Shown piece after piece: positions 28,014-38,185 of a stretch of DNA of 38,185 nucleotides (positions are counted from its first letter, which is position 1; the number at the start of each line of letters is the position of its first letter). Under the pieces are notes generated by a model. The model did not search any database. It was not told where the DNA came from and worked only from the letters and a program-made list of their open reading frames with translations. Source of the DNA: a virus (taxonomy: Duplodnaviria > Heunggongvirae > Uroviricota > Caudoviricetes); the IMG/VR virus record IMGVR_UViG_2671181094_000002; one strand, written 5' to 3'. Both the position numbers and the translations under genes were made by a program.

Positions 28014-28085
28014 GCGCGGCGTTACCGCATACCAATTACGCTTCACTCGAGGCGTTTTTCGTTATGTATAAATAAGGAGCACACC

Positions 28086-28250
28086 ATGCAATATGCCATT
28101 GCAGGGTGGCCTGTTGCTGGCTGCCCTTCCGAATCTTTACTTGAACGAATCACCCGTAAATTACGTGACGGATGGAAACGCCTTATCGACATACTTAATC
28201 AGCCAGGAGTCCCAAAAAATGGATCAAACACTTATGGCTATCCAGACTAA
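28086..28250 (+). CDS. cIII: cIII (FtsH inhibitor protecting cII)
   Basis: 54-aa [57 protein letters not shown] read by hand; below track cutoff. Confidence 0.85.
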   Translation: MQYAIAGWPVAGCPSESLLERITRKLRDGWKRLIDILNQPGVPKNGSNTYGYPD

Positions 28251-32418: not shown

Positions 32419-32637
32419 ATGTACTTGACACTTCAGGAGTGGAACGCACGCCAGCGACGCCCAAGAAGCCTTGAAACAGTTCGTCGATGGGTACGCGAGT
32501 GCAGGATATTCCCTCCTCCGGTTAAGGATGGAAGAGAGTATCTGTTCCACGAATCAGCGGTAAAGGTTGACTTAAATCGACCAGTAACAGGTAGCCTTTT
32601 GAAGAGGATCAGAAATGGGAAGAAGGCGAAGTCATGA
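32419..32637 (+). CDS. xis: Excisionase Xis
   Basis: 72-aa ORF MYLTLQEWNARQRRPRSLETVRRWVRECRIFPPPVKDGREYLFHESAVKVDLNRPVTGSLLKRIRNGKKAKS. Confidence 0.95.
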   Translation: MYLTLQEWNARQRRPRSLETVRRWVRECRIFPPPVKDGREYLFHESAVKVDLNRPVTGSLLKRIRNGKKAKS

Positions 32638-33685
32638 GCGCCGGGATTTACCCCCTAACCTTTATATAAGAAACAATGGATATTACTGCTACAGGGACCC
32701 AAGGACGGGTAAAGAGTTTGGATTAGGCAGAGACAGGCGAATCGCAATCACTGAAGCCATACAGGCCAACATTGAGTTATTTTCAGGACACAAACACAAG
32801 CCTCTGACAGCGAGAATCAACAGTGATAATTCCGTTACGTTACATTCATGGCTTGATCGCTACGAAAAAATCCTGGCCAGCAGAGGAATCAAGCAGAAGA
32901 CACTCATAAATTACATGAGCAAAATTAAAGCAATAAGGAGGGGTCTGCCTGATGCTCCACTTGAAGACATCACCACAAAAGAAATTGCGACAATGCTCAA
33001 TGGATACATAGACGAGGGCAAGGCGGCGTCAGCCAAGTTAATCAGATCAACACTGAGCGATGCATTCCGAGAGGCAATAGCTGAAGGCCATATAACAACA
33101 AACCCTGTCGCTGCCACTCGCGCAGCAAAATCAGAGGTAAGGAGATCAAGACTTACGGCTGACGAATACCTGAAAATTTATCAAGCAGCAGAATCATCAC
33201 CATGTTGGCTCAGACTTGCAATGGAACTGGCTGTTGTTACCGGGCAACGAGTTGGTGATTTATGCGAAATGAAGTGGTCTGATATCGTAGATGGATATCT
33301 TTATGTCGAGCAAAGCAAAACAGGCGTAAAAATTGCCATCCCAACAACATTGCATGTTGATGCTCTCGGGATATCAATGAAGGAAACACTTGATAAATGC
33401 AAAGAGATTCTTGGCGGAGAAACCATAATTGCATCTACTCGTCGTGAACCGCTTTCATCCGGCACAGTATCAAGGTATTTTATGCGCGCACGAAAAGCAT
33501 CAGGTCTTTCCTTCGAAGGGGATCCGCCTACCTTTCACGAGTTGCGCAGTTTGTCTGCAAGACTCTATGAGAAGCAGATAAGCGATAAGTTTGCTCAACA
33601 TCTTCTCGGGCATAAGTCGGACACCATGGCATCACAGTATCGTGATGACAGAGGCAGGGAGTGGGACAAAATTGAAATCAAATAA
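32615..33685 (+). CDS. int: Integrase Int (tyrosine recombinase)
   Basis: 356-aa ORF MGRRRSHERRDLPPNLYIRNNGYYCYRDPRTGKEFGLGRDRRIAITEAIQANIELFSGHKHK...; overlaps xis 3' end as in lambda. Confidence 0.95.
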   Translation: MGRRRSHERRDLPPNLYIRNNGYYCYRDPRTGKEFGLGRDRRIAITEAIQANIELFSGHKHKPLTARINSDNSVTLHSWLDRYEKILASRGIKQKTLINYMSKIKAIRRGLPDAPLEDITTKEIATMLNGYIDEGKAASAKLIRSTLSDAFREAIAEGHITTNPVAATRAAKSEVRRSRLTADEYLKIYQAAESSPCWLRLAMELAVVTGQRVGDLCEMKWSDIVDGYLYVEQSKTGVKIAIPTTLHVDALGISMKETLDKCKEILGGETIIASTRREPLSSGTVSRYFMRARKASGLSFEGDPPTFHELRSLSARLYEKQISDKFAQHLLGHKSDTMASQYRDDRGREWDKIEIK

Positions 33686-35103: not shown

Positions 35104-35336
<233 letters not shown>

Positions 35337-37574
35337 TTACATCTGACGGTTTTTATTGAAGTTAATCAAACTACCCGCCTTGATAATCTCGCGCTCTTCA
35401 GCAGTCAGACTTTCCATATAGAGCGTAATTTCCGTTACCGGCGCATCTTCATGGATCACATAACCTTTAAACGTCGTACCCGGATTATCCAGCGCCGCTT
35501 TAATGCCAGGGATGTAAATGTAATCCCCCACTTCAAAGGTTGGCACTTCCGCCATCTGCAGCGGTAACATCCCCCAGTTGATGACGTTAGAACGGTAGCG
35601 TTTAGTCGCGTACTCTTCGGCAATATTCGCCAGACCGCCAATCACACGCTGGCAGCTCGCCGCCTGTTCACGCGCAGAACCATCGCCTGGTTTCACCGCA
35701 TATACCATGCTGCCAATTTCAGTTTGCAGCGGATCAATATGCTCCTGACCAGCAATCTGCTTAATGCGCGCAAACACCTCTGTCAGCTCGCTGACATTCC
35801 CCGCCAGACGCTGATTTTCCAGCTCAGCAGTCGCTTTACTTCTGCCAACATAACCGGGATCGCGGCGTGACAGGGTAAACTCCGCCAGACCAATCGGATT
35901 TGAACGATAAGAAGAGGTTTCACCGGAAGGAATCAGTTCGTCGGTGGTGGTCACTTCGTCGAGGATCTTCGAGCACACTTTCAGGACGATATTGTCAGTC
36001 AGCGCACCCAATTCCGGCCAGTCTTTAATGTTCGGTCCGTAAATCAGCGGTTGCTGAGTTGCCCCTTTCACAAAGCCCTGATAAACACGGTTTTTATACG
36101 GCGTTACATCGAAGGCGTACTCCGGCACGTTGTCCCAGCAATCAAGTTCGCTGGCAGAGGTTAAATAGCCACCGTTTGCCGCAGTCGCAGCGATAGAACG
36201 AGCGTCCATCAACGCCACCGCTGACATCTGCCCATTAGCTGGCTTAGAGCCTTCGCGGTTCGGGAAGTTGCGCGTGGTGTGGCGAATACTTAATCCGTTG
36301 TTGATTGGCGTATCGCCCGCGCCAAAGCATGGGCCGCAGAACGCGGTTCTGATGATTGCGCCTGCGCCAATCAAATCTGCTACCACACCTTTTTTGGCGA
36401 GATCCATAAACACCGGCTGTGATGACGGGTAAACTGCCAGCGAGAAGGTGTCATTGCCACAGGATTGACCGCGCAGTGCATTCGCCGCCGCGATGACGTT
36501 TTCGTAGTTACCGCCAGAACAGCCCGCGATAATCCCCTGCTGCACTTTCAGGCGACCATTTTCCACTTTATCCAGCAGCGAGAGTTTGGCTTTACCGTGC
36601 GCCACGCGTTCGGACTCAATTTCAATCTCACGCAGAATGTCGGTCAGGTTCTGGTTCAGTGTGTCGATTTCATACACGTTGCTCGGGTGGAACGGCAGCG
36701 CAATCATTGGTTTGATGGCGCTTAAATCAACGCTGATGCAGCCATCGTAGTACGCCATCGGTTGAGGGTTAAGCTGGCAGTAATCCTGGCCGCGACCGTG
36801 CAGCGCCAGCCAGTTATGGACTTCTTCATCGGTTTGCCAGACAGAACTTAAACAGGTCGTTTCAGTGGTCATAACGTCAACGCTGTTACGGAAATCGGTA
36901 GAGAGCGCAGCAACACCGGGACCTACGAATTCCATCACTTTGTTTTTGACGTAGCCGTTTTTGAACACGGCACCGATGATAGCCAGCGCCACATCCTGCG
37001 GCCCCACATACGGCGCTGGTTTTCCGGTCAGATGCACCGCAACAACTCCCGGATAGTCGATATCCCAGGTGTCATTAAGCAGCTGTTTTACCAACTCACC
37101 GCCGCCCTCACCGACTGCCATTGTCCCTAATGCACCGTAACGGGTGTGGCTGTCTGACCCGAGGATCATTTTGCCGCCGCCTGCCATCATCTCACGCATA
37201 TATTGATGGATGACCGCAATATGCGGAGGCACAAAAATACCGCCATAACGCTGAGCTGCCGATAAACCAAAAACATGGTCATCACCGTTAATGGTGCCGC
37301 CGACGGCGCAGAGTGAGTTATGGCAGTTGGTCAGCACATACGGCAGCGGGAAACGTTCCATTCCGGACGCTTTAGCGGTCTGTACAATACCAACAAAGGT
37401 AATATCGTGAGAGGCTAATGAATCAAACTTAATTTTAAGTTTATCCATATTTCCGGACGTATTATGAGAAGAGAGAATAGACCAGGCAATAGTGCCTTTT
37501 TTGGCTTCTTCTTTTTTAATTTCGCCGGTGAAATGTTCTTCGGCAATTATTTCGTTATTACTGGCGAGAAACAC
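35337..37574 (-). CDS. ybhJ: YbhJ, aconitase-family protein (5' end abuts or is disrupted by IS1)
   Basis: 745-aa ORF with aconitase-family features (GSDSHT, Cys ligands CGPCFGAG); track start is a GTG 10 nt from the IS1 end and the frame continues into IS1. Confidence 0.75.
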
Positions 37575-37638
37575 GCCTTTTTCGGTGATGCTGCCAACTT
37601 ACTGATTTAGTGTATGATGGTGTTTTTGAGGTGCTCCA

Positions 37639-37914
37639 GTGGCTTCCATCTCCATCAGTTGTCCCTCCTGCTCAGCTACTGAAGGCGTGGTGCGTAACGG
37701 TAAAAGTACTGCCGGACATCAGCGCTATCTCTGCTCTCACTGCCGTAAAACATGGCAGCTACAGTTCACTTACACCGCCTCTCAGCCCGGTACGCACCAG
37801 AAAATCATTGATATGGCCATGAATGGCGTTGGATGCCGGGCAACCGCCCGCATTATGGGCGTTGGCCTCAACACGATTTTACGTCACTTAAAAAACTCAG
37901 GCCGCAGTCGGTAA
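37639..37914 (+). CDS. insA: IS1 InsA
   Basis: 91-aa [94 protein letters not shown]. Confidence 0.9.
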
Positions 37915-38185
37915 CCTCGCGCATACAACCGGGCAGCGATGTGATTGTCTGCGCTGAAATGGACGAACAGTGGGGCTACGTAGGTGCTAAATCACGTCAG
38001 CGCTGGCTGTTTTACGCGTATGACAGGATACGGAGGACGGTTGTGGCGCACGTCTTCGGTGAACGCACTCTGGCCACACTGGAGCGTCTTCTGAGCCTGC
38101 TGTCGGCCTTTGACGTGGTGATATGGATGACGGATGGCTGGCCGCTGTATGAATCCCGCCTGAAGGGAAAGCTGCACGTAATCAG
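37833..38185 (+). CDS. insB: IS1 InsB' (transposase frame, partial; normally expressed as InsAB' by -1 frameshift)
   Basis: Frame reading [79 protein letters not shown]... continues to window end. Confidence 0.75.

Follow-up and report, generated by a model that had tools for sequence, protein, structure and literature searches.

How did a copy of the insertion sequence IS1 come to lie against the 5′ end of ybhJ, and what has become of the gene behind it? The question arises at the end of the window, by which we mean the whole stretch of DNA analysed (38,185 nt), where ybhJ on the minus strand abuts an IS1 copy that is itself cut by the window end. The ybhJ gene encodes a putative aconitase-family hydratase and is the final gene in the ybhH-ybhI-ybhJ cluster, which is under ybhD regulation. 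The features of the region are the following.

35337–37583, minus strand: ybhJ remnant, coding nt 16–2262 through the stop codon, without ATG ATC AAG TTA TCT and everything upstream
37583–37584, no strand: IS1-ybhJ junction, ybhJ nt 16 joined to IS1 nt 1; probable endpoint of a 584-bp IS1-adjacent deletion
37584–38185, plus strand: IS1 element, nt 1–602 of 768, cut by the window end; a mosaic isoform
37584–37606, plus strand: IS1 left inverted repeat (IRL), 23 bp, an exact match to GGTGATGCTGCCAACTTACTGAT and the same as in K-12 IS1A
37591–37618, plus strand: promoter-like site CTGCCA-16-TATGAT, directed inward toward insA (promoter scan)
37639–37914, plus strand: insA, 91 aa, zinc ribbon and HTH, intact (NF033558, IS1 transposase; NF050000, Zn domain)
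37833–38185, plus strand: insB′ (DDE) frame, 117 codons, open to the window end (NF033558 profile positions 75–173)
37890–37896, plus strand: AAAAAAC motif (A6C), read from the sequence

Alignment with the IS-free ybhJ of K-12 showed that the coding sequence is broken after nt 15, with nt 16 the first base kept. The K-12 gene begins with ATG ATC AAG TTA TCT, followed by GAA AAA GGC GTG, and carries GGAG 6 nt upstream; in the window, IS1 is fused directly to GAAAAAGGCGTG. The native start codon consequently does not lie downstream of the junction; it has been lost, together with the GGAG ribosome-binding site, the DNA between ybhI and ybhJ and whatever promoter the gene may have had. On the plus strand, the 9 bp on the ybhJ side of the junction read GCCTTTTTC. 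The first ATG, GTG or TTG after the upstream stop in the ybhJ frame is the GTG at 37574–37572, giving an ORF of 745 aa, and the IRL starts 10 nt beyond it (37584 − 37574 = 10), exactly as an earlier note on this DNA had described. The same note had the ybhJ frame running without interruption into IS1; the frame does enter the element, but it comprises only five codons there (15 nt, 37584–37598, reading ..VGSIT), none of them a canonical start (ATG, GTG or TTG), and is closed by an in-frame TAA at 37599–37601.

Apart from the five missing codons the ybhJ remnant showed zero frameshifts or internal stops. Its 745-aa ORF was identical to residues 9–753 of K-12 YbhJ at 742 of 745 positions and matched the NCBIfam profile PRK11413 (YbhJ hydratase, aconitase superfamily) with 1526 bits, at a cut-off of 641. 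The match was restricted to positions 9–753 of the 753 in the profile; thus, the N-terminus of YbhJ is missing. At the nucleotide level, the remnant differed from K-12 at 34 positions, from isolate S1-INA-02-B at two, and from strain 127 at none; the 0–2 differences from these relatives point to a recent event within one lineage.

The element on the other side of the junction has the canonical layout of IS1 (IS1A, IS1F), with a 91-aa InsA, the A6C motif, the insB′ DDE frame and the inward IRL promoter all at the expected positions. The CTGCCA-16-TATGAT site corresponds in position to the promoter that IS1 is known to carry in its IRL, and AAAAAAC is the site of the programmed −1 frameshift by which insA and insB′ are joined; RefSeq annotates the IS1 copies of sister genomes, which are 768 bp long and carry a right inverted repeat (IRR), with a “programmed frameshift”. 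Both the InsA and the insB′ parts of the window copy matched NF033558, and the Pfam families Zn_ribbon_InsA, HTH_Tnp_IS1 and DDE_Tnp_IS1 were matched in the sister loci. With insA, the A6C site and the insB′ frame all intact, the visible part of the element looks functional. A chance resemblance is excluded, as the 602 nt matched thousands of E. coli IS1 copies at 93–98% identity.

The copy departs from IS1A and IS1F in being a patchwork, and over the visible 602 nt it differed from K-12 IS1A at 40 positions (6.6%) and from K-12 IS1F at 32 (5.3%). In a megablast search of 5,426 complete E. coli genomes the best IS1 matches reached 98.0–98.2%, and no record was identical, so that the genome of the window is absent from that collection. 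The earlier suspicion of a variant isoform is borne out by these values. The encoded InsA protein is a widespread variant, found exactly in 4010 blocks of assemblies; in the ten InsA-identical copies inspected, the DNA departed from that of the window IS1 at one common set of 15 sites, and none of the ten is thus an exact donor. Relative to the sister copies there were 16 differing sites, all within 37647–37845 (586/602 identical), while the segments 37584–37646 and 37846–38185 were the same as in CH4784 and GCA_948470525. The insA part thereby resembles one isoform group, and the insB part is that of the sister copies, whose own insA part is IS1A-like. A mosaic copy was also seen in another member of the lineage, GCA_041330615, differing in the 3′ part where the window copy differs in the 5′ part. 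The window IS1 is a recombinational mosaic of IS1 isoforms. A conversion tract would be the more parsimonious source of the 16-site difference, because the flanks and both outer IS1 segments are identical to those of CH4784 and GCA_948470525; alternatively, the difference may be an artefact of assembling or polishing multicopy IS1 sequences.

The junction recurs in other isolates. It was identical in CH4784 (L001), GCA_041330615 (L004), GCA_948470525 (L005) and one further assembly (L006), with 0–1 mismatches over the approximately 3.8 kb from ybhJ to ybhC; another (L007) was 99.97% identical until its contig ended 5 nt before the junction. Several E. coli assemblies matched the window at 100% identity from ybhJ to ybhC, and a Shigella origin, which had been considered, was set aside for this reason; the exact 745-aa ORF was present in 74 blocks of assemblies. 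Among the 5,426 complete E. coli genomes, CH4784 alone carried the junction as one continuous piece, and the exact 37-nt junction gave 0 matches in a collection of species-representative genomes (one genome per species). An assembly chimera at the repeat was considered and dropped, since at least four independent assemblies have the same junction.

What lies beyond the IS1 in these genomes bears directly on how the junction arose. No target-site duplication was present at the IRR end in CH4784, GCA_041330615 or GCA_948470525, all with the identical junction: the IRR was flanked by three different, unrelated sequences, and the 9 bp on the ybhJ side were not repeated. The ybhJ 5′ end was missing beyond IS1 in all public genomes found with this junction. 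In CH4784, the 5′ part of ybhI (nt 1–1056) was located about 12 kb away, where it terminates in ...GCTGAAGTC against the IRL of a further IS1 in inverted orientation. The counterpart of this end was found in S1-INA-02-B. There, an IS1 identical to the sister copy at 768/768 positions, with the same transposase accession (WP_223411729.1), adjoins ybhI nt 1048 (GCTGAAGTC...), and beyond it follow ybhI nt 1048–1434, the intergenic region and a full-length ybhJ. S1-INA-02-B thus retains 584 bp, made up of ybhI nt 1048–1434 (the last 387 nt), the 182 bp between the two genes, and ybhJ nt 1–15. In strain 127, the same IS1 copy (1 mismatch) adjoins ybhJ nt 184, corresponding to a 752-bp deletion. Nested endpoints therefore extend from the same IS1 end, at ybhJ nt 15 in the window, CH4784, GCA_041330615, GCA_948470525 and L006 and at nt 183 in strain 127, and the deletion sizes across the related isolates are 0, 584 and 752 bp.

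Since a target duplication is lacking and an identical IS1 lies 584 bp further out in S1-INA-02-B, the junction is best read as a deletion endpoint. We consider it likely that the window junction was produced by an IS1-adjacent deletion starting from an IS1 that bounds a foreign island in ybhI, leaving the truncated ybhJ. Judged by the sister genomes, the anchored IS1 forms one border of a large foreign island that lies within ybhI and has IS1 at its boundaries. In those genomes the island includes the clpK heat-resistance locus and Klebsiella-like DNA.

In the proposed sequence of events, an IS1-bounded block of foreign DNA would have entered ybhI at GCTGAAGTC (nt 1048–1056) in an ancestor of this E. 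coli lineage, generating a 9-bp target duplication and placing the IRL of one flanking IS1 toward ybhJ. This composite insertion was pieced together from two genomes, the left junction from CH4784 and the right junction from S1-INA-02-B. The flanking IS1 would then have promoted the adjacent deletion of 584 bp, with the IS1 kept and no target duplication formed. The lost DNA would comprise 387 nt at the 3′ end of ybhI, the 182 bp between the genes, which carry the ybhJ Shine-Dalgarno sequence, and 15 nt at the start of the ybhJ coding sequence. The deletion may have arisen when the IS1 transposed replicatively into a nearby target on the same molecule or, in a formally equivalent manner, from a new insertion followed by recombination between the two IS1 elements. 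The order of events, the deletion mechanism and the likeness of the window's far side to that of its sisters are what we infer from the sister genomes.

IS-promoted adjacent deletions are classically described for IS1 next to gal. The ybhJ locus shares their characteristics: the IS is kept at a fixed anchor, flanking DNA is missing as far as a new endpoint, a target duplication is absent, and the endpoints in related isolates are nested. Stepwise IS150 deletions have been followed in the long-term evolution experiment (PMC11708052), in comparison with which the history of ybhJ was deduced from natural isolates and not from a time series. Adjacent deletions and IS × IS recombination are given there as the usual causes of missing target duplications, and such losses tend to extend stepwise (PMC11708052).

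The second of the two routes deserves consideration in a specific form, in which a second IS1 entered ybhJ at nt 7–15 in the same orientation and RecA-dependent recombination with the ybhI IS1 then removed the 584 bp together with one IS1 copy. Its end product, with IS1 kept, no duplication and the intervening DNA lost, would be sequence-identical to that of the one-step adjacent deletion, and the two routes are indistinguishable from sequence alone. The IS1 copies of the lineage are visibly recombinant mosaics, and IS × IS recombination is a recognised source of missing duplications (PMC11708052). However, an intermediate with two IS1 copies around the 584 bp was not found among the genomes inspected, and each of the two endpoints (ybhJ nt 15 and nt 183) would call for an extra insertion of its own, whereas nested deletions driven by the transposase account for both directly. 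We therefore rate recombination between two separately inserted copies as a rather unlikely origin of the junction.

The earlier note had favoured an insertion that removed the start and upstream signals of ybhJ. The loss of these signals is confirmed by the K-12 alignment, but a simple insertion found no support. Such an event would be a transposition of IS1 into codons 3–6 of ybhJ with an 8–9 bp duplication, and just past the right end of the element the start of ybhJ with its ATG, the DNA between the genes and ybhI would all still be intact. The window by itself is compatible with it, the far end of IS1 lying beyond the window, and the isoform in the window is unlike that of the sister genomes. 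IS1 also does insert nearby, being present in the 3′ part of ybhI in many genomes. In TUM9812, an IS1 in the same neighbourhood and orientation, with the IRL toward ybhJ, lies 8 nt upstream of the ybhJ ATG; unlike the window, this is an IS1A-type copy with ybhJ and ybhI sequence kept on both sides and an 8-bp duplication (CAAATGCT). Against a simple insertion, all public genomes with the exact junction and an identical ybhJ have neither a duplication nor the ybhJ 5′ end past IS1. Moreover, the junction nucleotide, the 4-kb flank and 586/602 IS1 positions are the same as in the sisters, which makes it improbable that the same clone was hit independently at this very base. A simple insertion is accordingly judged an unlikely explanation, and the IS1-adjacent deletion from the island edge remains the preferred one.

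The other half of the question is whether the truncated gene is still expressed. The earlier suggestion that IS1 might supply an outward-reading promoter did not hold up: a promoter scan of the minus strand revealed no consensus outward or hybrid promoter spanning or preceding the junction. The IRL contains TTGGCA, which resembles a −35 element, but the hexamers at 16–18 nt from it are CGTGTT, GTGTTT and TGTTTC, none of them a −10 hexamer. In total, the promoter/terminator scan gave two promoter-like sites, one of them the inward IS1 promoter on the plus strand, versus 0.7 expected from shuffles, i.e. chance level; because of this chance-level count, an internal ybhJ promoter-like site (37489–37461, minus strand) was rejected as evidence for expression. 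The GTG at 37574 is preceded by AAAGG at a distance of merely 1 nt, a poor ribosome-binding site. Having lost its ATG, ribosome-binding site, promoter and transport partner, and lying against an IS1 end without an outward consensus promoter, ybhJ is probably silent, and we regard it as probably a recent, unexpressed 5′-truncated remnant. Some translation from GTG 37574 could occur via read-through transcription from beyond IS1.

The opposite outcome would be a re-activation of ybhJ by IS1, in which a hybrid or read-through promoter from the IRL drives synthesis from GTG 37574 of a YbhJ lacking 8 residues, outside YbhD/Nac control. The 745-aa ORF is intact and free of stops, RefSeq labels the CH4784 gene an intact “hydratase”, and IS1 fusion promoters are documented (Prentki et al. 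1986, and the activation of acrEF by IS1, as listed in PMC9330008). As in these cases, an IS1 end with a −35-like TTGGCA stands directly upstream of a promoterless ORF; unlike in them, the ybhJ flank offers neither a −10-like hexamer at the needed spacing nor a usable ribosome-binding site. The intactness of the ORF is accounted for by recency, given the 0–2 nt differences from the relatives. In addition, the 750-aa RefSeq CDS of the sister genome relies on a non-canonical ATC start within the IRL, the strain 127 allele is flagged as a pseudogene, and the partner transporter gene ybhI is broken. Re-activation thus appears very unlikely. Also very unlikely is a scenario in which the island-edge IS1 acts as an unusually active natural deletion generator, producing graded ybhJ truncations, with read-through from GTG 37574 yielding a deregulated hydratase of some selective value.

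Truncation of ybhJ by IS1 is an ordinary, already known kind of gene inactivation, and its significance is small: it adds a further case of IS1 eroding the cryptic, poorly characterised ybhH-ybhI-ybhJ cluster in an E. coli lineage rich in IS1. Annotations would do better to treat the 745-aa ORF, like the 750-aa RefSeq CDS with its ATC start, as a 5′-truncated pseudogene, and a simple insertion with target duplication should not be presumed for the window IS1. The junction serves as a clone-specific marker, and the related genomes together provide a natural illustration of nested IS1-adjacent deletions.

The observation that IS1 abuts the 5′ end of ybhJ was confirmed, with the junction between 37583 and 37584. 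The features on its two sides (36900-38185 read for IS1) were:

37574-35337, minus strand: ybhJ open reading frame of 745 aa, GTG 37574 to stop 35337 (ORF call)
37584-38185, plus strand: IS1, 602 of the 768 nt of the element, to the window end
37591-37618, plus strand: promoter-like CTGCCA-16-TATGAT inside the left terminal inverted repeat (IRL), inward-reading, the sole plus-strand site in the promoter scan
37639-37914, plus strand: insA, 91 aa, intact
37890-37896, plus strand: AAAAAAC frameshift motif within the visible IS1

The IRL of canonical IS1 (GGTGATGCTGCCAACTTACTGAT) begins at 37584, and the insB′ frame is open across the visible IS1. The distance of 10 nt from the GTG to IS1 given in the earlier note was reproduced. 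The ybhJ frame, described there as running uninterrupted into IS1, stays open for five codons and then meets TAA at 37599-37601; no ATG, GTG, or TTG was found in these five codons. Against PRK11413, the NCBIfam equivalog for YbhJ, the 745-aa frame scored 1526 bits, covering profile positions 9-753 only; it was identical to residues 9-753 of K-12 YbhJ at 742/745 positions without gaps. In K-12, ybhJ starts with ATG ATC AAG TTA TCT GAA AAA GGC GTG (MIKLSEKGV), preceded by GGAG 6 nt upstream. In the alignment with this IS-free allele, the window matches through ...GCCTTTTTC (reverse complement of GAAAAAGGC) and continues with IS1; thus, the junction lies between ybhJ coding nucleotides 15 and 16. 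On the ybhJ side, the native ATG is lost together with the Shine-Dalgarno sequence, the 182-bp spacer between ybhI and ybhJ, and all that lies upstream, in line with the loss of start and upstream signals proposed earlier; the K-12 comparison does not place the native start downstream of the insertion. In K-12 (L003 6440-6500), the spacer deleted here carries a perfect hairpin, CTGCGCACTTCACGGTGCGCAG, shortly before the ybhJ ribosome-binding site. This hairpin could act as a terminator or attenuator between the two genes and is relevant to whether ybhJ is normally transcribed from a promoter of its own.

As the far IS1 flank lies outside the window, the same ybhJ allele was traced in public assemblies. 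The exact 745-aa frame occurred in 74 assembly blocks, and the four assemblies spanning the junction (GCA_041330615, GCA_948470525, L006, and RefSeq CH4784) had the identical junction, with 0-1 mismatches to the window across ~3.8 kb of ybhJ-ybhC. A further assembly (L007) was 99.97% identical, its contig stopping 5 nt before the junction. Past the IS1 right end of the same-junction assemblies, neither a repeat of the ybhJ-side bases nor the ybhJ 5′ end was found. Instead, three unrelated flanks, each different from the others, were present: plasmid-like DNA (CH4784), a MobI region (GCA_948470525), and a Klebsiella-like biotin-carboxylase/urea-amidolyase cluster (GCA_041330615). CH4784 retains the 5′ part of ybhI (nt 1-1056) ~12 kb away, where it ends ...GCTGAAGTC against the IRL of another IS1, which is inverted and more divergent; ybhH, ybhD, and pgl come next in their normal order.

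In E. coli S1-INA-02-B, the IRL of a 768/768-identical IS1 lies against GCTGAAGTCTTTAAAA, corresponding to ybhI nt 1048 onward; next to IS1 come the 387 nt left of ybhI, then the intergenic region and full-length ybhJ. One transposase accession (WP_223411729.1) is common to S1-INA-02-B, CH4784, and strain 127. The S1-INA-02-B junction and the CH4784 ybhI junction overlap by 9 bp (GCTGAAGTC, ybhI nt 1048-1056), the expected trace of a single 9-bp target duplication, which points to an original insertion into ybhI; from these two junctions in two different genomes, an IS1-bounded block would have entered the gene. Strain 127 has the same IS1, with 1 mismatch, against ybhJ nt 184, and its ybhJ carries a RefSeq pseudogene flag for a missing N-terminus. 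One anchored IS1 end is thus found in three states: no deletion (S1-INA-02-B), 584 bp (window type), and 752 bp (strain 127). The ybhJ remnant differs at 2 nt from S1-INA-02-B, at 0 from strain 127, and at 34 from K-12; the 0-2 differences among these strains identify them as close relatives and the truncation as recent.

The IS is kept, target duplication is missing, flank loss stops at varying points, and these endpoints form a nested series. This four-part pattern is the signature of IS-promoted adjacent deletion; most likely, an IS1 anchored in ybhI deleted adjacent DNA into ybhJ. Adjacent deletion by IS1 in particular is classical. The general concept, including stepwise extension over time, is covered in PMC11708052. 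A formally equivalent route, insertion of a second IS1 at ybhJ nt 7-15 and then IS1 × IS1 recombination, is unlikely, and is listed as a rival because sequence does not separate two steps from one. Simple IS1 insertion in the window's strain is improbable: such insertions do occur nearby, as in TUM9812 (L002 4323-5090), where an IS1A-type copy with an 8-bp duplication (CAAATGCT) precedes the ybhJ ATG by 8 nt, and in the ybhI 3′ part of many genomes, but here a second, independent hit on that exact nucleotide within one clone would be needed. The earlier interpretation is therefore partly supported: 5′ truncation of ybhJ by IS1 stands, and simple insertion is not supported, given the missing duplication in sister genomes.

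Independent IS1 insertions at the ybhI 3′ end or ybhJ 5′ end were seen in many E. coli genomes, and ~20 genomes carry IS1 within ybhI, some 490-640 bp upstream from the junction. These insertions may mark a local hot spot for IS1, or common descent within lineages rich in IS1.

The suspicion of a variant IS1 isoform was borne out. Over 602 nt, the window copy differs from K-12 IS1A at 40 sites, from K-12 IS1F at 32, from ten copies encoding an identical InsA protein at 15, and from the best complete-genome match, CP52E, at 11. Relative to the CH4784 and GCA_948470525 copies at this junction, the window copy has 16 differences, confined to 37647-37845 (insA region), and none in 37584-37646 and 37846-38185; the GCA_041330615 copy has five further differences (38156-38180). 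The sister copy differs from IS1A at 25 positions, all in IS1 nt 262-523, insA matching IS1A and insB diverging, and is itself a mosaic. The simplest reading of the 16-site difference is a ~200-bp conversion tract from another IS1 copy; it could also have arisen as an error of assembly or polishing among the many IS1 copies.

In sister genomes, the IS1 beside ybhJ/ybhI forms the edge of a large IS1-bounded island in ybhI, of ~45 kb in S1-INA-02-B (L024 16500-49900 plus L012 1-12558) and reduced to ~12 kb in CH4784 (L011 1016-13218). The S1-INA-02-B island carries a clpK/hsp20/trx-GI/kefB-GI/psiE-GI heat-resistance locus, a ColE1-like rop, IS26 copies, and Klebsiella-type genes; IS5 copies, a MobI(A/C) gene, and a Klebsiella-type urea-amidolyase/biotin-carboxylase cluster also occur in the island in sister genomes. 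Its other edge has eroded into ybhD in S1-INA-02-B, and IS1-adjacent erosion differs between strains at both edges. Most of the window (1-33700) is a lambda-like prophage, with the integrase (32615-33685) beside ybhC at the classical lambda attachment site, a lambda cIII thermoregulator at 28073-28131 (Rfam match), and a structural half 97-98% identical to phi458, mEp460, and similar phages. At this site, CH4784 and GCA_948470525 have no prophage and GCA_041330615 only a remnant. The ybhC-ybhJ 3′ intergenic region (35119-35314) holds a REP/BIME-like 93-bp unit, repeated 2.1 times in tandem (91% match), with an Rfam naRNA4 (RF02564) match at 35172-35242 on the minus strand (60.7 bits, just over the gathering score of 59.5).

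The ybhH-ybhI-ybhJ cluster, whose function is still putative, ends with ybhJ and is divergent from the LysR regulator gene ybhD; ybhH and ybhI are responsive to YbhD, and probably to Nac as well (PMC9068703). After the deletion, ybhJ is without ATG, ribosome-binding site, and promoter, ybhI is broken, and the AAAGG near GTG 37574 is only 1 nt from it. Outward from the IRL, a −35-like TTGGCA is followed 16-18 nt downstream by the hexamers CGTGTT, GTGTTT, and TGTTTC, and the promoter scan revealed nothing promoter-like reading from the IRL into ybhJ. The junction resembles the IS1 fusion promoters listed in PMC9330008 in the TTGGCA of the IRL but differs in having no −10-like hexamer at the required spacing downstream; thus, no such promoter is formed here, and the outward promoter earlier considered possible was dropped. 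RefSeq/PGAP presents the truncated ybhJ of CH4784 (L001 2053-4305) as an intact 750-aa ‘hydratase’ with an ATC start inside the IRL, which is an annotation artefact. Most probably, as judged from the sequence, ybhJ is a silent, recently made remnant. The case represents a known element, IS1, in a known action, gene truncation through adjacent deletion, and public databases already contain the lineage.
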